A stretch of 64,000 nt of DNA from Spirochaetales bacterium. GTDB lineage: Bacteria > Spirochaetota > Spirochaetia > SZUA-6 > RPPD01. Below, one piece after another: positions 11,194 through 24,940 of this stretch; the stretch's first letter is position 1; the number at the start of each line of letters is the position of its first letter. A program made the position numbers and the translations under genes. The DNA lies in NCBI GenBank assembly GCA_016930675.1, contig JAFGGG010000042.1, forward strand, positions 16,423 through 80,422, in the 5' to 3' direction. Under the pieces are notes generated by a model, which was given only the letters and a program-made list of their open reading frames with translations, searched no databases and had not been told where the DNA came from.

Positions 11194-13422
11194 TTGTATA
11201 AAACTGGAATAATGATGGAAAAAATAAAAGTAGCCAACGGCATTTATTGGGTTGAAGTACCGGAAGCAGACATGTATATTCTCTGCGGCTGTCCGGCTGA
11301 CGCGGTTAAACACCTCATGAAGCGCGGTTTGATTATCCCCAAATCAAAAGACGGTATTAGCTATGAAAGCGGACCCAATGCCATTTTACTTTCAGATGTG
11401 TCTATTCAAAACAGTAGTTTTTCGAATCTGGCGGAATTTCCTGTGCTGCAGATGCTTTACAGGCAAGGTATGATTATTCCGCAACATCCCAATAATACAG
11501 GGAATAAACCTATTCTCATCGGAACTTCGTATCAAATCGCGGCACAAAGTCAGTACATCTACCGGGGCAACTTCGGCCTTACGAGCGTGAAGGAGATCAA
11601 GGATACGGGTATCCCCGAAGCAATAGCTAAGGAAATGCTCCGCATAAAGCGCCGCTTTGCCTTTAATAAAATATCAAAGACTGAAGACATTTTAGATTTC
11701 TGTATTGTGGACCAAAAGGCCGTTGAAATTCGAAACGGTGTGTTCATAAAACGCAAAGAATTAAATATATATGAGTTTAAGTATAATGGCGAAGCAGTAG
11801 AAGTCAATCTTAATCTGGCTTCACATGAAGATTTTGAACCCACGACCCAACTTGGTTTTCATAAAATAAAAAGAGAGTATTTCTCGGTTATTCATATCGG
11901 CGAAGGAGACGGCTGGGATGCAAACCGTCCCTGTATGTCCAGTATTATAACTTTTCAGGGGAAGATTTACCTTATTGATACGGGACCGCACATTCTCCAT
12001 TCACTTACCGCGCTTGGGATAAGTGTAAATGAGATTGAAGGAATCTTTCACACACATGGTCATGACGACCATTTTGCCGGATTAACAAGTTTGGTGCGGT
12101 CGGATCACCTGATTAAATACTTTGCACCTGCAGTAGTACGTGCTTCGGTCGTGAAAAAACTTGCAGCATTGATGTCTATCTCGGAGGAGAGATTTAAAAG
12201 GCTGTTTGAAATCCATACTCTGCATTTCAACCGCTGGAATAACATCGACGGACTCGAAGTGAAACCGATCTATTCACCGCATCCTGTTGAAGATGCCTTT
12301 CTTATTTTCAGAACCTATTGGGAAGGCGGATACAAGACATATGCTCATTTGTCGGATATCACTTCGATGGGTGTGCTGCAGAAGTATCTCATTGATGACA
12401 AAGAGTCCAATGAGATATCTAAAAAGATTTTTAATAACCTTAATAAAAATTATTTTTATCCAACTGATATCAAAAAAATAGATATTGGAGGAGGTATGAT
12501 TCATGGAAGAGCGCTTGATTTCGTGAAAGACAAATCCTCTAAAATCATATTGAGTCATACGTCACGAAGCTTAAGCATTGCTGAAAAGGAAATCGGATCC
12601 AACGCCACCTTCGGCATGGAGGATGTATTAATCACCGCTCATCAAGATTATTGTATGAGATCCGCCTACAGGTATTTAAGAGCATATTTTCCTTTGGCAC
12701 CGGATCATGATCTGGCCATGCTGTTGAACTGCCCGGTTCAGGAACTAAATGTAGGGCTTATTTTACTTAAAAAAGGTGTAATAAATACTCATGTGTATCT
12801 CATTATCACGGGCGGCGTAGAATATATAGATGCAAAAACAAAAACCCGCAACGTACTCTCCGCCGGTTCAATTATCGGAGAGGATGCTGTATTAAGCGGA
12901 GAAGCTCCGCAACGCACTTGTCGCGCCATGAGTTATATTAAAGTCCTAACAATACCCTGTGAACTTTATAAAGTCTTTTTGAACAGAAACTTTATGAGTG
13001 AGGATATCAAACGCATCTTTGAGAACAAACTTTTTTTACAGAACACATGGCTGTTCGGAGAGATGGTATCGAGTGTTATTCTAAACTCGATTGCCAAACT
13101 AATGCGGTTAAAAGTGATCAAAAAAGGTGAGGAATTAACTTCTGCCAGAACTCCGACGATTTATATGCTTAAAACCGGGGAAGTGCAGGTGTTTTTTGAA
13201 GACAAGCAGGTTGACACCTTAACATCCGGAGGCTTTTTCGGTGAAGAGAGTATTTTTCTGAAACAGGCTAATCTCTTTACAGCTTCCGCTGCAAAAGACT
13301 CGTCGGTATATGTTATTTTAGGAGATATTCTCCAATTTAAACCAATTATCGAATGGAAGCTGCTTGAAACATTTGAGAAGCGTTTACGTACATTCGGCAC
13401 TCAATTAGAAAAAAGCATATAA
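11194..13422 (+). CDS. Metallo-beta-lactamase-fold hydrolase fused to two C-terminal cyclic-nucleotide-binding (CAP/Crp-like) domains
   Basis: MBL motif HTHGHDDH plus IDTGP. Two cNMP-like beta-barrel segments (...GEDAVLSGEAPQRTCRA... and ...SGGFFGEESIFLKQANLFTASAA...). An alternative start at 11215 (MMEKIK) is possible. Confidence 0.6.
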   Translation: MYKTGIMMEKIKVANGIYWVEVPEADMYILCGCPADAVKHLMKRGLIIPKSKDGISYESGPNAILLSDVSIQNSSFSNLAEFPVLQMLYRQGMIIPQHPNNTGNKPILIGTSYQIAAQSQYIYRGNFGLTSVKEIKDTGIPEAIAKEMLRIKRRFAFNKISKTEDILDFCIVDQKAVEIRNGVFIKRKELNIYEFKYNGEAVEVNLNLASHEDFEPTTQLGFHKIKREYFSVIHIGEGDGWDANRPCMSSIITFQGKIYLIDTGPHILHSLTALGISVNEIEGIFHTHGHDDHFAGLTSLVRSDHLIKYFAPAVVRASVVKKLAALMSISEERFKRLFEIHTLHFNRWNNIDGLEVKPIYSPHPVEDAFLIFRTYWEGGYKTYAHLSDITSMGVLQKYLIDDKESNEISKKIFNNLNKNYFYPTDIKKIDIGGGMIHGRALDFVKDKSSKIILSHTSRSLSIAEKEIGSNATFGMEDVLITAHQDYCMRSAYRYLRAYFPLAPDHDLAMLLNCPVQELNVGLILLKKGVINTHVYLIITGGVEYIDAKTKTRNVLSAGSIIGEDAVLSGEAPQRTCRAMSYIKVLTIPCELYKVFLNRNFMSEDIKRIFENKLFLQNTWLFGEMVSSVILNSIAKLMRLKVIKKGEELTSARTPTIYMLKTGEVQVFFEDKQVDTLTSGGFFGEESIFLKQANLFTASAAKDSSVYVILGDILQFKPIIEWKLLETFEKRLRTFGTQLEKSI

Positions 13423-14885: not shown

Positions 14886-15133
14886 GGTGCTTCTCCTGCT
14901 ATAGCATATTATTCTTTCCCACCACTAATTATATAGTAATTATTAATTCTTTCAAATTATAATTAGCCTTTTTATGAATATATATGATATCTATATTCCG
15001 GTGTCTAAAGAATATTTTTTAGAGCTATATATGTATTGTTCACATCCTTACCACTTTTTTAAATAAAGCACTTCTATAATTATAATAAGCCGTAAATCGC
15101 TTAGGCAAATATTATGTCGTAGACAAGGAAACG

Positions 15134-15538
15134 TTATTCCCTTCTTGGTGCGTTTACCATACCGACAATTCCACCCGCTACTAAGAAAATAATTGCTATC
15201 AGAGTGATTGGATTAAAGGCAACTGTGATAAATGCGACTATTACGGCATTTAAAATAAGAGCTTTACCGAAACCGTGGGGAAACCATAATGATAAAATCG
15301 CGGAGGCAAGACCAATTACGACTGTTACAAATCCAACCGTAATCCATAAATTACGGATATCGTCGTTTTGCTGCTCCGGTGAATAAAATTCTGCAGTGAA
15401 ACCAGGCGCATAATTCTTTATTTGCTCATATGCAACATTGCCGGCAACAAATGAACCCGGAATCATCAGGATAGCGCCTGCCAAACCTAAGATAACCGGT
15501 AACAGTTTTATAATGTCTATTTTGGGTGCCATAGCCAA
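15134..15538 (-). CDS. Small polytopic membrane protein (hypothetical)
   Basis: 134 aa, 3-4 hydrophobic helices. RBS AGGAGG 7 nt upstream of ATG. Confidence 0.5.
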   Translation of the reverse strand: MAMAPKIDIIKLLPVILGLAGAILMIPGSFVAGNVAYEQIKNYAPGFTAEFYSPEQQNDDIRNLWITVGFVTVVIGLASAILSLWFPHGFGKALILNAVIVAFITVAFNPITLIAIIFLVAGGIVGMVNAPRRE

Positions 15539-15562
15539 AGCCTCCTAAAGTATTATATTAAT

Positions 15563-15591
15563 TTTATAATTAATACCCTTAAAGGTGTCAA
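15563..15591 (-). promoter_or_regulatory. Putative sigma70-type promoter for the 15134-15538 membrane-protein gene
   Basis: On the minus strand: TTGACA, 17-nt spacer, TATAAA, then ~20 nt to AGGAGG and ATG. Confidence 0.35.
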
Positions 15592-15607
15592 GGTGGTTGA
15601 CACCTTT
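15581..15607. promoter_or_regulatory. Perfect 11-bp inverted repeat (AAAGGTGTCAA-N5-TTGACACCTTT), candidate operator overlapping the -35 element
   Basis: Palindrome read directly from the sequence. Each arm contains TTGACA. Confidence 0.5.
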
Positions 15608-16022
15608 TATGTGTATTTTTTTGTATTTAGATACTGTATCAAAATACAGATATATCATGTGTAATTGCTGATAATCCTGCCTGAAGCTTTTTATCTCCCT
15701 GCGTAATTCCATATTGCAAAAAAAACATCCTTGTGAGTCAGGAAATCTTCCGCCGCCCTTCGGATAAAGGCATGAGGCAAGAGATCCATGGCCGGTTGTC
15801 CTATGGAAAGGTCTATGGTTCCGGCGGGAATGTTGAATCGCGCTGTATCAAGGACAGTATGTTCCATCTCTCTGTCTTGTTTCCTGTCTTATATTATTAT
15901 AATGTTCGTTTTTGTAAAAAACGTATTATCCGCGAGTAATTGGATAAAAGAATTTATTTCATTTCCGTCACATCTGGCCAGTTTGGTTTGTATAAATAGA
16001 TAAAAGATAAAAAGGAGGATAT

Positions 16023-16967
16023 ATGTGTAGAACAAGATATAACAGATGTATCGTGGGTATGAGTTTAATGATTTTACTTTTTCAATTTATAGCGGGTTGT
16101 GAACAGGAGGAAGTAATGGAAAATCCATGGGAAGTCATTATCGACACGCAGGTAAAGCAGCCGGTGCGAATGGCAGCCTTTCTTGATGAAAGCTTCGGTA
16201 TTACCGGCGGTTTCAGCGGAGCGGGAAAAACCAATCGCACTCTGGACGGCGGGAAAACCTGGAATATTTCGGAAGCGAGCGGCGGTTGTCTGTTCGGAAT
16301 CGAAATCATTGACAGCAATACTGTGTGGGTGGCCGGCAAAATGTCGGGTATGAGTTTTGATACGCCGGGCGGTTTACGCTTAAGTAAAGACGGAGGCCTT
16401 ACCTTTGAGGAGTCTGCGACTATCCGTACTCTTCCTCGTGAATGTCCTATGAGTTTTATGGATGAGAACTCAGGCTGGTTTTATCAGAATGAAAAACTCA
16501 GACGCACGGCTGACGGCGGGAAAAATTGGAAAGAAACAGCCTTGCCGGTCGACGCCGCTATTATCAAAGCAGTTCAGCTGCGAACAAAAACCGACGGTTA
16601 TCTGTTGGATATAACCGGGAACCTCTTTACGACTAATGATGGAGGAAATACCTGGAGTAAAACGCAGCTTCCTCTGCAAAAATATCACTGTCTTGAAATA
16701 ATGGAATTTGAAAGTGTTGCAGCTGCCATACGTTTTTTCGATAAAAACAATGGAGTTGTTGTTGCGAGTCTTCTTGCCGAGGGGGAGAGAAAAGACTGCG
16801 TGCTGGCTTTCAGGACAAAAGACGGCGGACAAAACTGGCGGAGTGAGCTTGTCAGCTATGGATGCGGGATCATCTTTCTTTCACCGGACGGCCGCTATGT
16901 GACCATACAGCTGATGGGAAAAATCGCAGTATTGCGATATACGGGAGAAGAGTGGACGAACTTATGA
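16023..16967 (+). CDS. BNR/Asp-box repeat lipoprotein (Ycf48-like beta-propeller)
   Basis: Five S/T-x-D-G-G-x-T/N-W Asp-box repeats (DGGKTW, DGGLTF, DGGKNW, DGGNTW, DGGQNW). Lipobox FIAGC. RBS GGAGGATATATG. Confidence 0.6.
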   Translation: MCRTRYNRCIVGMSLMILLFQFIAGCEQEEVMENPWEVIIDTQVKQPVRMAAFLDESFGITGGFSGAGKTNRTLDGGKTWNISEASGGCLFGIEIIDSNTVWVAGKMSGMSFDTPGGLRLSKDGGLTFEESATIRTLPRECPMSFMDENSGWFYQNEKLRRTADGGKNWKETALPVDAAIIKAVQLRTKTDGYLLDITGNLFTTNDGGNTWSKTQLPLQKYHCLEIMEFESVAAAIRFFDKNNGVVVASLLAEGERKDCVLAFRTKDGGQNWRSELVSYGCGIIFLSPDGRYVTIQLMGKIAVLRYTGEEWTNL

Positions 16968-18088
16968 GCACTAGGCTTTCTGAGTTTATAAAAGCTAATT
17001 GGGGCATTATCCTGGCCGGAATCATCATCGGTATTCTGGCCCCTCTTTTACAAAAACTGGGAAATCCGGCGCAGACCGGGCTTTGTATCGCCTGTTTCGA
17101 GCGCGATTTGGCCGGTGCGCTGGGTTTCCACAGGGCGGAAGGGGGTCAGTATATTCGACCGGAGATCATCGGTCTGGTTTTGGGTTCGACTCTCGCGGCC
17201 TTGATTTTCGGTGAGTTCAAAACCAGGGGAGGTTCTGGAAGCATGATCCGATTTTTCCTCGGAATGTTCGCTATGATCGGCTGTTTGTCTTTTTTGGGAT
17301 GTCCTGTCGGCGTGCTGCTCCGTTTGGGCACGGGAAATTTGAATGCAGTCCCTGCGCTGCTGGGTATTGTCTGCGGTATTTTTATCGGGATACGCTTTAT
17401 AAAAGCGGGATTTTTTATCGGACGGTCACGCAAACTCTCTTCGACAGCGGGCTGGATTATGCCGGTTTTCATGATCGCTCTGTTTGTTTTTCTTTTTTTC
17501 GATTTCAGATCGAATGATTGGAGTGCCCCCTTTTCTTCATGGCTCCCGCCGGCCGCGATTCATGCTCCTCTTTTTGTGTCGTTGGCTATTGGTCTTATTA
17601 TCGGTTTTTTTGCGCAAAGAACACGTTTCTGCGCGATCGGTGCTTTCCGTGATCTTATTATAGTTAGAAACTCCCATTACATGTACGGAATTATCGCGAT
17701 GGTCGTTTCATCCTTTCTAACCAATCTTTTACTGGGACAGGTGAATATTTATTTCGGTTCACAGGAACAAGGTCATTCCCTGACCTTGTTTACTTATTTC
17801 TGGCCGTTTCTGGGAATGGTCCTGGCAGGTCTTTGTTTTTCTCTAGTGGAAGGCTGCGCGGCCCGGCAGCTTTTTTTAACGGGAGAGGGAGATAGCGACG
17901 CCGGATTTTTTATTCTTGGAATGTTTGCAGGCGCAGCGCTTACCCATAATTTCGGTTTTATCGGAAGGCCGGTCTGCGCGCAGGTAATGGATATAAGCTC
18001 TTTGGGAATCGGCACCATCATAATCGGCTTGATTTTTTGCATTACTATAGGATTTACCATGCGCATTAAAAATGGAGGAGGAGAATAA
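16964..18088 (+). CDS. YedE/YeeE-family membrane protein (selenium/sulfur-compound transport family)
   Basis: Polytopic protein with internal duplication, each half carrying a Cys motif (GLCIACFERDLAG and RFCAIGAFRDL). ATGA start/stop overlap with the upstream gene. The in-frame ATG at 16862 was rejected in favour of 16964. Confidence 0.65.
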   Translation: MSTRLSEFIKANWGIILAGIIIGILAPLLQKLGNPAQTGLCIACFERDLAGALGFHRAEGGQYIRPEIIGLVLGSTLAALIFGEFKTRGGSGSMIRFFLGMFAMIGCLSFLGCPVGVLLRLGTGNLNAVPALLGIVCGIFIGIRFIKAGFFIGRSRKLSSTAGWIMPVFMIALFVFLFFDFRSNDWSAPFSSWLPPAAIHAPLFVSLAIGLIIGFFAQRTRFCAIGAFRDLIIVRNSHYMYGIIAMVVSSFLTNLLLGQVNIYFGSQEQGHSLTLFTYFWPFLGMVLAGLCFSLVEGCAARQLFLTGEGDSDAGFFILGMFAGAALTHNFGFIGRPVCAQVMDISSLGIGTIIIGLIFCITIGFTMRIKNGGGE

Positions 18089-18090
18089 TT
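18074..18090 (+). promoter_or_regulatory. Strong RBS (GGAGGAGGAG) followed by candidate non-ATG start (ATA 18085 / ATT 18088) for the cysteine desulfurase-like gene
   Basis: Conserved IYFDNAATSW N-terminus is in frame upstream of the first ATG. The only in-frame stop is at 18067-18069. Confidence 0.4.
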
Positions 18091-19239
18091 TATTTTGACA
18101 ACGCCGCCACGTCATGGCCCAAACCTCCGCAAGTAATTGAAGCCATGGTCAACTTTATAAATTTCGTTGGTGCCAATCCGGGACGCTCCGGTCACCGCAG
18201 GGCCGTAGCCGCGGGGCGGATCGTGTACGACACTCGCCGGGCGGTCGCGGAATTGGTCGGCGCCGATGATCCTTTGCGTATTATTTTTACCTATAATGTC
18301 ACGCATGCTCTCAATCTTTGCCTGCATGGATTGCTGGCGCCTGGTGATCATGTGATCACCAGCAGTATGGAACATAACTCGGTAATGCGTCCTTTGCGTA
18401 TGCTGGAAAAAAAAGGAGTAAAACTCTCGATTGTCAGATGCGCGAACAATGGTAGTCTTGAACCCAGTGCAGTCGAAGCTTTGATAGGTACTGGTACCAA
18501 GCTTGTGGTTCTCAATCATGCTTCCAATGTTACGGGCACACTACTCCCGATCAAAGCCGTTGGCGCAATCTGCCGCAAACACAATCTTCTGTTTTTAGTC
18601 GATACGGCACAAACTGCCGGCTGCTATCCGATTGCTATGCAGTCCGATTGTATTGATCTTCTTGCCTTTACAGGACATAAGGCCTTGCACGGACCCATGG
18701 GTACCGGAGGACTGGTAATCGGCGGCAGGGTTGATGAAAAATCTCTCAATCCGTTACTGCAGGGAGGCACAGGAAGCAACTCCCAATATGAAGAACAGCC
18801 TGATTTTTTACCGGATGCCCTGGAAGCAGGCACGGTTAATGCAGTGGGTTTGGCGGGGTTGGCAGCCGGGATTAACTGGATAAATGATATTGGACTTGAA
18901 ACAATCCGCTCGCATGAGGAGCATCTAACCAAACTTTTAATCGAGGGCTTAACAGGGATTGGCGGTGTCACTGTGTACGGAGATCACTGCGCTGCTGACA
19001 GGACCGCCACTGTTTCATTTACTATTGAGCATATCCCTGTGTCTGAAATAGGCCTGAAGCTTGATGAGGAATTCGGGATTCTCTGCCGCGTGGGGTTGCA
19101 CTGTGCACCTATGGCCCATAAAACCTTGGAAACATTTCCCCATGGAACCGTGCGTTTCGGGTTCAGTAGCTTTAACACGGAAGATGAAGTAGAGAAAGCC
19201 ATTGCTGCCGTTAAAGAGCTTTCTGCGGGGGTTTTATGA
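18088..19239 (+). CDS. Class V aminotransferase-fold cysteine desulfurase / selenocysteine lyase-like protein
   Basis: Conserved N-terminus IYFDNAATSWPKPP lies upstream of the first ATG (18145). Frame opens after the TAA at 18067-18069, so the start is a non-ATG (ATT 18088 or ATA 18085) behind RBS GGAGGAGGAG. PLP-Lys region TGHKALHGPMGTGGL. Confidence 0.7.
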   Translation: MYFDNAATSWPKPPQVIEAMVNFINFVGANPGRSGHRRAVAAGRIVYDTRRAVAELVGADDPLRIIFTYNVTHALNLCLHGLLAPGDHVITSSMEHNSVMRPLRMLEKKGVKLSIVRCANNGSLEPSAVEALIGTGTKLVVLNHASNVTGTLLPIKAVGAICRKHNLLFLVDTAQTAGCYPIAMQSDCIDLLAFTGHKALHGPMGTGGLVIGGRVDEKSLNPLLQGGTGSNSQYEEQPDFLPDALEAGTVNAVGLAGLAAGINWINDIGLETIRSHEEHLTKLLIEGLTGIGGVTVYGDHCAADRTATVSFTIEHIPVSEIGLKLDEEFGILCRVGLHCAPMAHKTLETFPHGTVRFGFSSFNTEDEVEKAIAAVKELSAGVL

Positions 19240-19469
19240 AAAGTACAAGCTCAACTGTGATCCTTGTATGTTCCACAAGCTACGCCCTGCATATTGAAAA
19301 AACTCTCAAGGATTCCGGTATCCCATGCACCCTCATACCCGTGCCGCGTCATCTAAGCTCAGACTGCGGTGTATGTGTACGTATCGCATCCCATTGCAAA
19401 GCTAAAACCATAAAAATGCTGGAAACAACCAAAATTCCTTTTGAAGGAATTTTTGATCTTATTCAGTAA
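19236..19469 (+). CDS. DUF3343-like small protein (putative Se/S carrier-like)
   Basis: 77 aa. Conserved-looking core IPCTLIPVPRHLSSDCGVCVRI. Overlaps the desulfurase stop by 4 bp. Confidence 0.55.
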   Translation: MKSTSSTVILVCSTSYALHIEKTLKDSGIPCTLIPVPRHLSSDCGVCVRIASHCKAKTIKMLETTKIPFEGIFDLIQ

Positions 19470-19586
19470 TAAAAATTTTCTTTTTTTAATCAAAATTATT
19501 TAGAATATAATTATCTGTGGAGGTGAGTATGGATATTGATGTAATTCTTCTAACAACTGTAGACATAATAATCCGCATTTTTTAAA

Positions 19587-20639
19587 TCAGTTATTATCTG
19601 TTATATTTAAGAATTCTCGGATTTCCGCTATAGTTTCGGCCTGAGCTTCGTCATGATTAAATAAAGTATGACCGCGATCAGAGAGGATTTTTATGGTTGC
19701 ATCAGGTATTTTATGTTTTAACAGATTCATGCCTTTCTTCCAGTCAAGCGTTTTATCGGCATCTCCCTGCACGATAAGTACGGGGATGGTAATGAGCGGC
19801 CGGTCTTTTAGTATTTTTCTCCAATTGGAGAGAGCTTTAACCCACGTGAAAGGCATTACCTCAGGGCTTAAATATCCCTGCTTGGGGCCGACCATTGGAC
19901 CTGCATACATGAACGGTGATAAAAAACTGGCTATACAGGAAGTATATTCAAAATTTCTGGGTTCGATAAGCGGAGCCAGGAGTATCGCCATATCTATATC
20001 GGCCGGATATTCCCAAAGTGCTTCCAAGACCGCGGAACCTCCGGTACTGTGTCCTAATAAGATAAAGGGTTTTGGCAAAGTGTAGGTATGTTGATTTTTT
20101 ATCCAGGCTATGATATCGGAAATACACACGCCGTATTGACTAAACTCGCGAATATCACCCGGATAACCGTTGGAAAATCCGTGTCCGGGCAAATCAACGG
20201 CTAAAACCGCCCAACCATCCTCAGCCAGCTGGTACAAAGCCGGAAGGTTAAAGGCACTGTATGCAGCATATCCGTGAAAAGCGATTATTGTTCCCAGTAC
20301 CTGCTGATGTGGAGGAAGCAGCAGCACAACTCCGAGCCGATAATCGGTCGTGTTGATATAGCCCATGATGCGGCTTCCCGGAAAATGATAATCGGGGTTG
20401 TAGCTGTCCGCTTTAATGAAATATTCAGTGACAAAAGGACCGCTTTGCGGCAGCACGGCGGACTCTAAAGGACCGGCCTCTTGCGCTAGAGACTCACGAA
20501 GTGAAAAAAGCTTGTCGGGAGGCTGCTCGAAAACAGCACAGCCTGTGAGTGCACCCTGCAGGCATACCAGAAAAAATAATAAAACTGTGGAATATGTTTT
20601 TCCCACTATCATAGTAAACAGTATAAGGAAATTTTTCAT
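19587..20639 (-). CDS. Alpha/beta-hydrolase-fold lipoprotein (esterase/lipase-like)
   Basis: Signal peptide with lipobox LTGC. Nucleophile elbow GHSTGG. Acid/His region near the C-terminus (QGDADK...RGHTLF). Confidence 0.6.
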   Translation of the reverse strand: MKNFLILFTMIVGKTYSTVLLFFLVCLQGALTGCAVFEQPPDKLFSLRESLAQEAGPLESAVLPQSGPFVTEYFIKADSYNPDYHFPGSRIMGYINTTDYRLGVVLLLPPHQQVLGTIIAFHGYAAYSAFNLPALYQLAEDGWAVLAVDLPGHGFSNGYPGDIREFSQYGVCISDIIAWIKNQHTYTLPKPFILLGHSTGGSAVLEALWEYPADIDMAILLAPLIEPRNFEYTSCIASFLSPFMYAGPMVGPKQGYLSPEVMPFTWVKALSNWRKILKDRPLITIPVLIVQGDADKTLDWKKGMNLLKHKIPDATIKILSDRGHTLFNHDEAQAETIAEIREFLNITDNN

Positions 20640-21310: not shown

Positions 21311-22543
21311 TCAGGATTGCTCAAGTCCCCAACGCCGAAAAACCAATGAGGTATTGATTCCGCCAAAAGCAAAATTATTGCACATAATGTATCGTGCTTC
21401 CATGACTCTCCCTTGTCCGGTGATATAATCTATTTGTGCGCAGGCAGGATCGACGTTTTCCAGATTGAGATTAGGCGCGAACCAGTTATCATTCATCATA
21501 TTAATAGCCAGCCAGCTTTCTATGGCCCCACAGGCACCCAAAGTATGGCCCATATAGCTTTTTTGGGTACTTATGGGAACGGCTCTTTGAAAGCAATTAT
21601 ATGTTGCATGACTTTCTGCGATATCTCCGTGATGGGTGGCTGTTCCGTGGCCGTTAACGTAAGCTATCTGGTCGGGATCTATTTCAGCGCTTTTTAAGGC
21701 TTCCCGCATTGCCTTCTCCATAGTATTTTTATCCGGCTGTGTGATATGCTTACCGTCGGTATTTGTTCCAAAGCCGACAAGTTCGGCATAGATATGAGAT
21801 TTTCTCTGCAATGCATGTTCAAGTTCTTCCAGGATAATTGTTCCGGCTCCTTCTCCGATAACCAGACCGTCTCTGTCCTTGTCAAAAGGTCTGGGAGTGA
21901 GATGCGGCGTGTCGTTTTTTATGCTTGTGGCGTACAGGGTGTCAAATACGGCCGATCCTGTGGGATTCAGCTCTTCCGCGCCTCCGCACACCATCACCTT
22001 TTGGTGACCGAATTTAATGGCTTCAAAACCTAAGCCGATGGCCAGGCTTCCCGCAGTGCACGCGGTATTTGAAGTAAGCAGCCGACCGGTTAATCCGAAA
22101 AATAAAGCAATATTTACAGCACACGTCTGAGGCATGGAGCGAATATATGTGGTAGCCGTGATGCCTTGAATATCATTGGTAGTGAGCATGGAGTAGAAAT
22201 CAAGAAGCGCATTCACGTTACCGGTTGAGGATCCGAAAGAGACTCCTGAATCACCGTTTGTCAGAACGGGTGAGTCCAATAATCCGGCGCACTTTAATGC
22301 CATCTCGCTGGCATGCACCGCCATGAGTGCGACTTTGCCCATACCGCGAGTTACTTTTCTGGGATAATCAGGCGGTGTCCACTCTACAGGGGCCGCCAGT
22401 TTGGTATGTAATCGTTTATATTTCTCCCATTCATCCATTCTGGTTATTCCGCTTTTTTTCTGTTTCAGCCGTTTTTTTATCGTAGGCCAGTCATGTCCGA
22501 TCGGAGTTATTACCGAGCCCCCAGTTACGACTACTCTGTTCAT
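21311..22543 (-). CDS. Beta-ketoacyl-ACP synthase (KAS I/II-type; ApeR-like position)
   Basis: 410 aa. Active-site Cys in NTACTAGS. His motifs VNGHGTATHHGD and MGHTLGACG. Confidence 0.8.
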   Translation of the reverse strand: MNRVVVTGGSVITPIGHDWPTIKKRLKQKKSGITRMDEWEKYKRLHTKLAAPVEWTPPDYPRKVTRGMGKVALMAVHASEMALKCAGLLDSPVLTNGDSGVSFGSSTGNVNALLDFYSMLTTNDIQGITATTYIRSMPQTCAVNIALFFGLTGRLLTSNTACTAGSLAIGLGFEAIKFGHQKVMVCGGAEELNPTGSAVFDTLYATSIKNDTPHLTPRPFDKDRDGLVIGEGAGTIILEELEHALQRKSHIYAELVGFGTNTDGKHITQPDKNTMEKAMREALKSAEIDPDQIAYVNGHGTATHHGDIAESHATYNCFQRAVPISTQKSYMGHTLGACGAIESWLAINMMNDNWFAPNLNLENVDPACAQIDYITGQGRVMEARYIMCNNFAFGGINTSLVFRRWGLEQS

Positions 22544-23277
22544 TATATCATTCCTCCATTGACTGAAATCACCTGCCGGGTTATATACGCTGCGGAATCG
22601 GATAAGAGGAAAATTGCCAATGCCGCTACTTCTTCCGGTTTCCCCATCCGCCTGAGAGGAATCATGGTACGAATATGATCCCAGGGAATTTCTTTACTCA
22701 TAGCCGTTTCAATGATACCCGGCGCTATGCAGTTAACCGTAATATTCCGTTTGCCCATCTCAATGGCCAGGGCCTTTGTGGCACCGATAATACCCGCTTT
22801 GGCCGCACTGTAGTTTACCTGTCCGCGGTTTCCCACAAGACCGGATATGGATGAGATAGTAATAATCCGGCCGGGTTTGCGGGTCTGCACCATCGGCATG
22901 ATAAGGGGATGGAGCACATTGTAAAAACTGTCAAGATCAGTGTGGATAACTTTATCCCAATCCTGTTCACTGATAGAGGGAAATGCGTTGTCGGCGGAAA
23001 CTCCTGCGTTACAAACAACACCGTAATAAACTCCATTATGTTCGATATCCTGTTCAAGAACCTGTCTTGTTCGTGCCCTGTCTGTAATGTCAAATTGGAG
23101 AAGACGCCCGCTGTTTCCGCTTTTTAACAGGGATTTTTTTACCTCTGCGGCTCCTTCCGCATCGCTTCGATAGTGAATGATTGCCTCATAACCTGCCGCG
23201 CCCGCGGCCAGGGCAATAGCTTTGCCTATACCCTTGCTGGCTCCTGTTACGAGTACGGATTTTTTTTCTTTATTCAT
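22543..23277 (-). CDS. 3-oxoacyl-ACP reductase (SDR; FabG/ApeQ-like)
   Basis: TGASKGIGKAIA Rossmann motif. Catalytic YSAAK. 244 aa. Confidence 0.8.
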   Translation of the reverse strand: MNKEKKSVLVTGASKGIGKAIALAAGAAGYEAIIHYRSDAEGAAEVKKSLLKSGNSGRLLQFDITDRARTRQVLEQDIEHNGVYYGVVCNAGVSADNAFPSISEQDWDKVIHTDLDSFYNVLHPLIMPMVQTRKPGRIITISSISGLVGNRGQVNYSAAKAGIIGATKALAIEMGKRNITVNCIAPGIIETAMSKEIPWDHIRTMIPLRRMGKPEEVAALAIFLLSDSAAYITRQVISVNGGMI

Positions 23278-23752
23278 TTTGTGCGCCTGTCATTTTTTTT
23301 ATTAGTGTATCATTCGCGGATATGGTGCTTAGAGTGCCTGCCGCGAATTCCTTTTTGGATATTGAAGCCTTTCCTTCGAATACCGCGACATCGCCGTCCC
23401 TGAATACCTGCTTTACAAGAATGGTTACCCTGCTGCCGGGGGCAAAACCCTTCTGGTATGTGATAAAATCGCGTATTGCCATAATAAATCCGATCTTTGG
23501 TCGCTGTGCCTTTAGTATGCTGCTGATACCGGACAGAAGTGCAATGTTTTGCGCCATATATTCAAAGGCAATCCAACAGGGGATGATCCCCGATTCAGCG
23601 TCAAAAAATATACTCTGTTCTGTTACATCGACAGAGGACTTGAGAAAAGCGTGCTCTAAGGAATAATCTTCCAGCCGGTCGATGAGCAGCATGAGGTTTT
23701 TATGAGGAGAGTATTTGAAAAGCTCCGGTTTGGTTACAGGTGTATTAATCAT
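23270..23752 (-). CDS. Hotdog-fold dehydratase (ApeP/FabZ-like)
   Basis: 160-aa protein in the conserved DH slot between KR and KS. Hotdog-like central helix segment (IPCWIAFEYMAQNIALL). Confidence 0.55.
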   Translation of the reverse strand: MINTPVTKPELFKYSPHKNLMLLIDRLEDYSLEHAFLKSSVDVTEQSIFFDAESGIIPCWIAFEYMAQNIALLSGISSILKAQRPKIGFIMAIRDFITYQKGFAPGSRVTILVKQVFRDGDVAVFEGKASISKKEFAAGTLSTISANDTLIKKMTGAQNE

Positions 23753-24940
23753 TTAACCCTCCTCGCGAGTAATGATAAGACTGACATTGCATCCGCCGAA
23801 AGCATAGGAATTACTCATGCAATTATATATTCTTTTCGTCTTATAGCCAACCGGAATAAAATTAAGAACAGGCAGACCCTCTTCAGGCTCTTCGTCCCAA
23901 ATATGAGGCGGGAGCAGGATTTCATCGTCATTTTGAGACAAAACAAGCCAACAGAAAGCCAACTCCATAGCTCCGGCAGCTCCCAGAGTGTGGCCGATCA
24001 TGGTTTTTGTACTGCTGCAGGGAGGAATATTTTTAAAAACACGACCGGTAGCCTTACATTCCATTCTGTCATTCAACATGGTTCCTGTTCCGTGCAGGTT
24101 GATGTAATTAATATCTTCAGCTGCAAGCCCGGCATCCTTAAGAGCTCTACGCATTGATTCCGAGGCCCCAATTCCTTCCGGGTCCGGGGCAGTTATATGA
24201 TAGGCGTCTGAGCTTTCACCGCAGCCTGTCAGGCTGATATTGCACTGTGCAGTCTGATCTTTGGTAACAATAAAGAGAGCAGCTCCTTCACCCAGGTTGG
24301 TTCCCTTGCGGTTTTTACTGAAAGGCTTGCACGGTTCCCTATCTACGGCCTCCAATGAATGGAAGCCGAGGAGAATCGGATCGGATACAATATCCGCGCC
24401 GCCGGTTATTACAGCGTCACAGACTCCCGAATTGAGCAGGCTGCGGGCAAAAATAAAAGCGCGCGCACTGGAAGTACAGGCAGTCGATATATTGCAGGCT
24501 ATACTTTTTAGATTTAGATATTCTTTAACAAAGCAGGAGCTGTTGTGAGCTTCTTGTTTGTGAAAGCTGTAATCTTCCGGAAAAGATCCGCTCTCCTGAT
24601 ATATTCTTAACGCCTGGAGGGATTCCTCCGATCCGTTATCTGTGGAACCTATCACTACACCTATGCGCTGAGACCCGAACCGAGAAATAAGCTTGTCAAC
24701 TGCCGGTCGAATTTGATCACAAGCATAAGCAAGCAGGCGGTTAAGGCGATTATCATAGACACGTGGCAGTTTCCGGGTTTGCTTCGGGCTCACTGCAGCG
24801 ACAGTAAAGGTTCCCTGTGTGTTTGTTTGCCGCTTAAGCCCCTCTCTGCTTCCCCGAAGGAGGTTGTCCAATATCATATGCTTATTATATCCCAAGGCGT
24901 TTATGATCCCCAGATTGTTCAGGTAAATTTTGCTTTTCAC
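23753..24940 (-). CDS. Beta-ketoacyl synthase (ApeO-like position)
   Basis: 395 aa. Active-site Cys in STACTSSARA. His motifs NLHGTGT and IGHTLGAAG. Confidence 0.75.
   Translation of the reverse strand: MKSKIYLNNLGIINALGYNKHMILDNLLRGSREGLKRQTNTQGTFTVAAVSPKQTRKLPRVYDNRLNRLLAYACDQIRPAVDKLISRFGSQRIGVVIGSTDNGSEESLQALRIYQESGSFPEDYSFHKQEAHNSSCFVKEYLNLKSIACNISTACTSSARAFIFARSLLNSGVCDAVITGGADIVSDPILLGFHSLEAVDREPCKPFSKNRKGTNLGEGAALFIVTKDQTAQCNISLTGCGESSDAYHITAPDPEGIGASESMRRALKDAGLAAEDINYINLHGTGTMLNDRMECKATGRVFKNIPPCSSTKTMIGHTLGAAGAMELAFCWLVLSQNDDEILLPPHIWDEEPEEGLPVLNFIPVGYKTKRIYNCMSNSYAFGGCNVSLIITREEG

Follow-up and report, generated by a model that had tools for sequence, protein, structure and literature searches.

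The channel protein TsuA (YeeE; structure 6LEO) presumably moves sulfur species inward by cysteine chemistry. For a relative, YedE1E2, zero-valent sulfur was found to be imported via essential cysteines, and no export was seen (PMC10812762). The YedE proteins were tied to selenium by Lin et al. 2015 (PMC5322559) as they are found almost only in SelD-containing organisms, and the same study described their genomic neighbourhood, in which a selenocysteine-lyase-like enzyme and a small DUF3343 protein accompany the channel. No prokaryote has yet yielded a proven selenium-specific transporter (PMC11097638, PMC13188914); the yedE gene of Methanococcus maripaludis is induced about 5 log2-fold under selenium starvation, and its deletion has no clear phenotype (PMC11097638). 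The subject of the present analysis is a four-gene operon of this general type in a Spirochaetales bacterium (assembly GCA_016930675.1, contig JAFGGG010000042.1, positions 16,423–80,422). This stretch of 64,000 nt is referred to as the window, and all coordinates are window positions. The genome (G000) is a metagenome-assembled genome (MAG) of 3.23 Mb in 46 contigs, 78.4% complete. The operon is tightly coupled on the + strand (16023–19469) and begins with an exported beta-propeller lipoprotein of the BNR type. It is a conserved variant of the YedE/lyase/DUF3343 neighbourhood, not described in the papers searchable here; its hallmarks are an exported Ycf48-like propeller, in most cases a MalT-like activator, and occurrence in genomes in which selD was not found. 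Its features are as follows.

15627..16022, + strand: presumed promoter region, module-specific (congener homology ends at ~15616–15626)
16023..16967, + strand: Ycf48-like BNR/Asp-box beta-propeller lipoprotein, exported, 314 aa (predicted lipobox; PF14870, PF02012, PF15902)
16964..18088, + strand: YedE-family membrane channel, 374 aa, ~10 predicted transmembrane segments, of a divergent, BNR-linked subclade (TIGR04112)
18085..19239, + strand: group II class V pyridoxal phosphate (PLP) enzyme, cysteine desulfurase/selenocysteine-lyase-like (TIGR01977)
19236..19469, + strand: DUF3343 small carrier-like protein, 77 aa, with a CGxC loop (PF11823)

The same arrangement recurs elsewhere. A scan of species-representative genomes and metagenome contigs, with an alignment of 12 BNR sequences as query, returned the complete set of four genes, in the same order and direction, from the isolate Mobilitalea sibirica DSM 26468 (L018), three Bacillota/Clostridiales MAGs (L017, L019, L020) and four metagenome contigs (L061, L063, L065, L071). 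Four further loci (L016, L060, L062, L069) show the first two genes only, as their contigs end early. Beyond the window, the carriers comprise four species-representative Bacillota genomes and seven metagenome contigs, and identities to the window proteins are 45–77% (BNR), 52–75% (YedE), 58–66% (desulfurase) and 40–48% (DUF3343). The BNR–YedE junction is present in at least 12 loci from two phyla, the two genes overlapping or lying within about 45 nt of each other. As the same gene order recurs at 45–77% identity in other genomes, the link to the propeller is real and not a local chance event. An earlier note on this DNA, made from the sequence alone, had pointed to the propeller as an unusual association; the coupling is conserved in the same order in Bacillota genomes and metagenome contigs. 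Two contigs of one Bacillota MAG (DUNX01), L016 and L017, each carry BNR–YedE; one of them stops within YedE, and the other begins shortly before the BNR match. The locus may be present twice, or a single locus may have been split in assembly by strain-level variation.

Ordinary YedE loci, i.e., those outside this module, look different. Among 53 such loci from Clostridia and Spirochaetota, a BNR gene was found within 1.5 kb in none, whereas a TIGR01977-like enzyme (41–49% identical, mostly on the opposite strand) occurred within that distance in 26 and a DUF3343 gene in 35. These counts, and the neighbourhood published earlier (PMC5322559), agree with the earlier note in treating YedE, desulfurase and DUF3343 as a known selenium-linked grouping. 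The module derives from this trio of selenium users and is a conserved, co-inherited unit. BNR genes also occur in loci of a second kind, mostly on Chloroflexi-type contigs, where two or three tandem paralogues are found without YedE. These cassettes (L066–L079 and L021–L025; e.g., L078:1296–8883 and L074:1289–8808) consist of a MalT-like activator gene, the BNR genes and a gene for a protein of ~650 aa. This protein has two CxxC domains that resemble thioredoxin/glutaredoxin and ends in a multi-pass membrane domain, which is likened to CcdA/DsbD by a protein atlas and by a weak ArsG-type match; this is a lead rather than a proof. In nearly all loci from outside the spirochaetes, whichever the kind, the BNR gene is immediately preceded by one for a full-length MalT-like STAND/LuxR activator; none was detected at the window locus, in its closest relative (L060) or in the G000 genome.

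The second distinguishing property of the module concerns SelD. Whole genomes were searched in six frames, reading through stop codons, and a selenocysteine-containing SelD remained detectable in this way. Neither selD nor selA, selU or yqeB was found in G000 at its 78.4% completeness, and tRNA-Sec was absent from the 34 tRNAs predicted by ARAGORN. Seven relatives from the same family (87–95% complete) lack both selD and YedE, and selD is present in several other families of the order. None of the five module genomes, that of the isolate M. sibirica included, gave a selD match over the cut-off, nor was yqeB found in any of them. A congener carrying a BNR fragment at a contig end (G002) likewise gave no selD. 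Weak selD-like matches were traced to HypE in G000 and ThiL in G002; in the four module genomes other than G000 the best matches were ThiL-like or unassigned AIR-synthase-like proteins, the one in M. sibirica being an AIR-synthase-like protein that scored under every cut-off. None of these is SelD. The last protein (~331 aa, L029:1477–2472) scored 113 bits with HypE, 105 with ThiL and 90 with SelD models, all below the NCBIfam cut-offs. It occurs in Bacillota carriers of the module, with similar matches in G031, G033 and G034, but G000 gave no counterpart; two class V aminotransferase genes are located no more than 6 kb from it in G033.

Ordinary YedE proteins show the opposite pattern, and the results for them indicate that the search is of high power. 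In samples (not censuses) of the two groups, YedE was detected in 24 of 300 Clostridia, 23 of them with the ordinary type, and 22 of these 23 carried a selenocysteine-containing selD; the 24th genome is that of M. sibirica, with a module-type YedE and no selD. Besides G000, 89 of 400 sampled Spirochaetota carry an ordinary YedE, and selD was present in all 80 that were tested. The contrast, 0/5 module genomes versus 102/103 ordinary-YedE genomes, has a nominal Fisher P of 5e-8, a value that is overstated since related genomes are not independent. The module YedE subclade therefore breaks the rule that a YedE marks a SelD-containing organism, and the co-occurrence with SelD on which the selenium label of TIGR04112 depends does not extend to it. 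The earlier note had placed the operon in the context of selenium-dependent cofactor systems. A role in supplying selenium to a cofactor or to selenoproteins, with the partner encoded elsewhere in the genome, is not supported, given that selD, selA, selU, yqeB and tRNA-Sec were not found here and that selD was not found across module genomes and family relatives. The earlier note had also named the finding that would overturn it, namely a thiosulfate-type membrane protein in a genome without selenium-utilisation genes; the second half is what was found, but the first is not, as the membrane protein does not belong to the thiosulfate-type YeeE/TsuA.

The window YedE scores 375 bits on TIGR04112 (cut-off 200), the lowest among 90 Spirochaetota matches; module-type proteins reach ~370–378 bits, compared with 420–540 bits for the ordinary type. 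On the TsuA/YeeE thiosulfate model (NF041049) it scores only 30.8 bits against a cut-off of 645, and the operon contains no TusA/TsuB-type partner gene. Hydropathy indicates about ten transmembrane segments, and both half-motifs of the internal duplication (CIACFERDL and CAIGAFRDL) are present. Five cysteines (C75, C78, C147, C257 and C332 in P0002 numbering) are invariant in 30/30 YedE sequences of both clades, while the module clade has, in addition, two invariant cysteines of its own (C372 and C393) and a short insertion, and differs by substitutions at about 30 further positions characteristic of the clade. In the YedE tree, 21 of the 22 ordinary Clostridial proteins form a clade with 95% support, and all eight module YedEs fall outside it.

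The BNR protein begins with a positively charged N-region and a hydrophobic core, followed by a predicted lipobox, IAGC, at residues 23–26. By motif reading this fits the pattern [LVI][ASTVI][GAS]C, and the family consensus likewise ends in GC at this position. The mature part has five to six Asp-box (DGGxTW) motifs and matches the Ycf48-type BNR family PF14870 (43.6 bits, cut-off 27) as well as PF02012 and PF15902. An AlphaFold model built on 31 homologues had a mean predicted local distance difference test score (pLDDT) of 90, and its top matches in the PDB were Ycf48 structures (E 8e-12 to ~1e-11, template modelling (TM)-score ~0.5, 17% identity). The Ycf48 equivalog model NF010237 was not reached (57 bits versus 326), and the hosts are fermentative anaerobes. 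None of the 540 homologues has a named function. Two cysteines, C89 (in SGGC) and C141 (in ECP), are invariant in 12/12 YedE-linked copies and are lost jointly in about 10 of 28 tandem BNR paralogues. In the model, each lies just ahead of the first strand of neighbouring blades, from which we infer that they may be close together at one opening of the propeller.

The third gene product scores 428.7 bits on TIGR01977 (cut-off 377) and 369 bits, below the cut-off of 525, on NF040779, the model for SclA. SclA is the sole characterised member of TIGR01977 and prefers selenocysteine (bioRxiv 10.1101/2020.02.07.939272). The PLP-binding lysine K179, the catalytic C320 and the pair H77-N78 (P0003 numbering) are invariant in the module desulfurases, eight of which form a single clade (SH-aLRT 99), with the spirochaete sequence nested among those of Bacillota and metagenomes. 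A housekeeping role was considered and rejected, as at least two other enzymes of class V are encoded in the genome. The start of the gene is unusual. The first ATG (18145) comes only after the conserved N-terminal segment, which a start there would remove; the PF00266 match starts at 18088. A comparison of start codons places ATA (18085), followed by ATT (18088), where relatives have ATG or GTG. A strong Shine-Dalgarno sequence, GGAGGAGGAG (18074–18083), stands just 5' of the ATA, and this non-canonical start overlaps the YedE stop codon TAA (18086–18088). In the relative L017, too, a standard start is missing, and CTG stands in its place. The ATA/ATT could represent a weak non-canonical start, a recent loss of the start codon or an assembly error. 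The DUF3343 protein scores 67 bits on PF11823 (gathering score 25). Its invariant motif, PxPRxxSSxCGxCxR, is common to DUF3343 proteins beside ordinary YedE, with CGxC kept in 12/12 sequences. The model (pLDDT 88) has a beta-alpha-beta-beta-alpha-beta fold with CGxC in the beta2–beta3 loop. It is ferredoxin-like and matched no PDB entry at E 0.001; a TusA-like fold, which was considered for this protein, was not borne out.

The gene order and coordinates given in the earlier note hold for all four + strand genes, and its three proposed family assignments (TIGR04112, TIGR01977, PF11823) all score above their cut-offs. A strong Shine-Dalgarno sequence (AGGAGGA) lies immediately 5' of the BNR ATG at 16023, and YedE starts at the ATG at 16964, in an ATGA overlap with the BNR stop; the start at 16862 in the open reading frame (ORF) list is an over-extension. 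The DUF3343 start overlaps the desulfurase stop in the same manner, as ATGA. Since the flanking genes are unrelated and divergent or convergent, the operon comprises four genes. On one side lie a small unknown ORF, a gene for a WD40 protein and fpg, and on the other an alpha/beta hydrolase gene. The upstream region (15627–16022) contains no regulator gene, a search of Rfam families over 15000–20000 gave no riboswitch or other RNA match, and promoter- and terminator-like sites near the operon are of consensus level only, being no commoner than in shuffled sequence. A perfect 11-bp inverted repeat (AAAGGTGTCAA / TTGACACCTTT) with a T-rich tail is found at 15581–15607, just where the sequence in common with congeners ends and synteny is lost; it resembles a terminator serving the + strand upstream.

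The module sits at the edge of a 23.7-kb segment (15627–39344) that is arranged differently within the genus. In the congeners G002 and G003, DNA matching the window at 15.6 kb is joined directly to DNA matching 39.35 kb, and in G001 the homology breaks at 15626. Part of the right side of the segment (19.6–23.3 kb) is found on another contig in G003, so the region is a rearrangement hotspot and not a simple island. The BNR fragment in G002 (82% amino acid identity) is at a contig end elsewhere in that genome, with other surroundings. The GC content of the module is 47.8% compared with 42.9% for the genome, a mild deviation (92nd percentile) that alone is weak evidence of transfer. Considered jointly, the variability of the segment within the genus, the Bacillota-like relatives and the GC shift make the whole module look horizontally acquired. 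Contamination by a Bacillota contig was rejected, as the flanks match congener spirochaete genomes at 68–80% DNA identity. Elsewhere in the window, two ketoacyl-synthase genes, a short-chain dehydrogenase/reductase-type ketoreductase gene and an ApeP-like dehydratase gene (21311–24940, - strand) look like a cluster for aryl-polyene or specialised lipid synthesis, and a 742-aa protein (11194–13422, + strand) has a metallo-beta-lactamase-fold domain and a C-terminal cyclic-nucleotide-binding domain.

Invariant cysteines are found in every member of the module: the pair of the propeller, the YedE pore (including a CxxC), the CGxC of DUF3343 and C320 of the PLP enzyme. The alternative partner of the BNR proteins in Chloroflexi-type contigs is likewise a thiol-redox membrane protein, which supports cysteine chemistry. 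We infer that the propeller is an extracytoplasmic partner of YedE and that the cysteines carry the transported atom. We therefore lean towards reading the operon as a horizontally acquired, self-contained and SelD-independent relay that passes a chalcogen from cysteine to cysteine across the cytoplasmic membrane, most likely for the import of sulfane sulfur, and consider this somewhat likelier to be right than wrong. At the outside station, the lipid-anchored Ycf48-like propeller would present its conserved cysteine pair and capture zero-valent (sulfane) sulfur or polysulfide. The YedE channel, lined by the five family-wide and two clade-specific cysteines, would form the membrane station, from which the atom would be imported to a cytoplasmic carrier. 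Inside, the CGxC loop of DUF3343 and the PLP desulfurase/selenocysteine lyase would load or unload this same carrier, the desulfurase serving as a second source. Elemental selenium, Se(0), or a selenotrisulfide might be an alternative substrate. The import of sulfane sulfur or polysulfide is favoured because import has a precedent in the family and because no use is known for imported selenium where a genome lacks selD.

Several points weigh against this reading. Neither the element nor the direction of transport can be settled from sequence. The YedE, lyase and DUF3343 proteins are closest to selenium-linked versions, which, with the preference of SclA, fits selenium better than sulfur, and a sulfur importer has no obvious need of a desulfurase. 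That enzyme, lacking a canonical start codon, may be poorly expressed in the spirochaete, and the cysteine pair of the BNR protein could be a structural disulfide. The monophyly of the module YedEs is weakly supported (68), and all but one of the five module genomes are MAGs, whose completeness is partial or not stated.

A bolder alternative, though unlikely, is that the module is a dedicated trans-envelope handler of selenium that works without selenophosphate. If true, bacteria would have here either their first defined chain for selenium export and detoxification or a SelD-independent route of selenium use, and the cysteine-pair propeller would be an extracytoplasmic receptor that hands selenium to a YedE channel, the first of its kind. 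The main rival of the relay reading is selenium disposal, which on its own is rather more doubtful. The lyase would break down selenocysteine formed accidentally from selenide, and the selenium would pass to DUF3343, be exported by YedE and end up deposited on or by the propeller outside, protecting organisms that make no use of the element. Such a linear chain employs all four proteins, needs no missing acceptor and suits genomes without selD; all its parts are closest to selenium-linked families, SclA is selenocysteine-specific (10.1101/2020.02.07.939272), an inducible MalT-like activator lies upstream in most lineages, and YedE was raised as a possible selenium exporter by Lin et al. 2015 (PMC5322559). 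However, the relatives that have been tested import rather than export (PMC10812762), yedE of M. maripaludis is induced by selenium starvation (PMC11097638), and no selenium-resistance genes were seen near the module.

It is improbable that the propeller is functionally unrelated to the trio, i.e., a MalT-regulated surface protein concerned with, for example, polysaccharides or the envelope, downstream of which the other genes happened to land. The pair of MalT-like regulator and BNR protein does occur without YedE, BNR propellers are common in glycoside hydrolases (GH74 was among the fold matches), and sugar use is often under MalT regulators. Yet the spirochaete copies retain BNR–YedE in the absence of the regulator, the junction is kept across two phyla at the close spacing described above, the Chloroflexi alternative partner is also a cysteine-rich thiol-redox membrane protein, and no glycosidase family reached its cut-off. 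More improbable again is a use of selenium that bypasses selenophosphate, with selenium from the lyase and DUF3343 going straight to an unknown cofactor or small molecule. The selenium-type parts retain invariant catalytic residues and are kept under apparent purifying selection where no selD was found, but no candidate acceptor is conserved beside the module, such an acceptor has never been described, and every known bacterial selenium trait requires SelD or a SelD-like enzyme (PMC5322559). Least probable, and largely refuted, is the ordinary supply of selenium (uptake and recycling) envisaged in the earlier note, to SelD, selenoproteins, selenouridine or a selenium-molybdenum cofactor, for although the three family models match, the MAG is only 78.4% complete and other families of the order have selD, the search that detected selD in 102/103 ordinary-YedE genomes found none in the module genomes (one of them an isolate), G002 or the more complete family relatives, and the other selenium-trait markers were not found.

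The finding bears on how YedE is annotated. The protein has been the leading selenium-transporter candidate since 2015, as it was seen only in SelD-containing organisms, and the module either overturns the equation of YedE with selenium use or points to selenophosphate-free selenium handling. Matches to TIGR04112 should not be annotated as selenium transporters without a check for selD. M. sibirica DSM 26468 is a clean test organism, being cultured and carrying the whole module and its regulator, with no selD or yqeB found that might confound an experiment. The operon is also the first functional setting identified for a family of over 500 Ycf48-like propellers of non-photosynthetic bacteria.

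Of the known systems, Ycf48/HCF136 (PDB 2XBG, 5OJR) is the best structural and Pfam match for the propeller, and both are stand-alone BNR-type propellers of ~300 aa, lipid-anchored outside the cytoplasm. They differ in that identity is only ~17%, the TM-score ~0.5 and the equivalog score 57 against 326, and in that the module propeller belongs to non-photosynthetic hosts, has a conserved cysteine pair and adjoins chalcogen or thiol-redox membrane proteins. SclA (EF2568) of Enterococcus faecalis shares the TIGR01977 subfamily, PLP lysine and catalytic cysteine with the module enzyme, which falls below the NF040779 cut-off (369 versus 525), has His-Asn where SclA has H99-H100, and lies outside any selD operon. 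YeeE/TsuA (6LEO) and YedE1E2 (PmpAB-type) share with the module channel the PF04143 superfamily, the internal duplication and essential pore cysteines, so that transport by cysteine chemistry serves as the working model; the match to the former is remote (31 bits versus 645 for TsuA, E 0.0023 for 6LEO), no partner gene of the TusA/TsuB type is present, and the fold predicted for DUF3343 is a different, ferredoxin-like one. The closest counterpart is the ordinary YedE/selenocysteine-lyase-like/DUF3343 neighbourhood (PMC5322559). All three of its families are present in the module above their cut-offs, and the five YedE cysteines and the CGxC of DUF3343 are common to both. Against this, selD is found in no module carrier versus 102/103 ordinary-YedE genomes, the YedE scores are ~375 versus 420–540 bits, and the module genes are co-directional, whereas the ordinary lyase is mostly on the opposite strand to YedE. 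A further difference is the exported BNR gene, which is always 5' of YedE in the module, compared with 0/53 ordinary loci.

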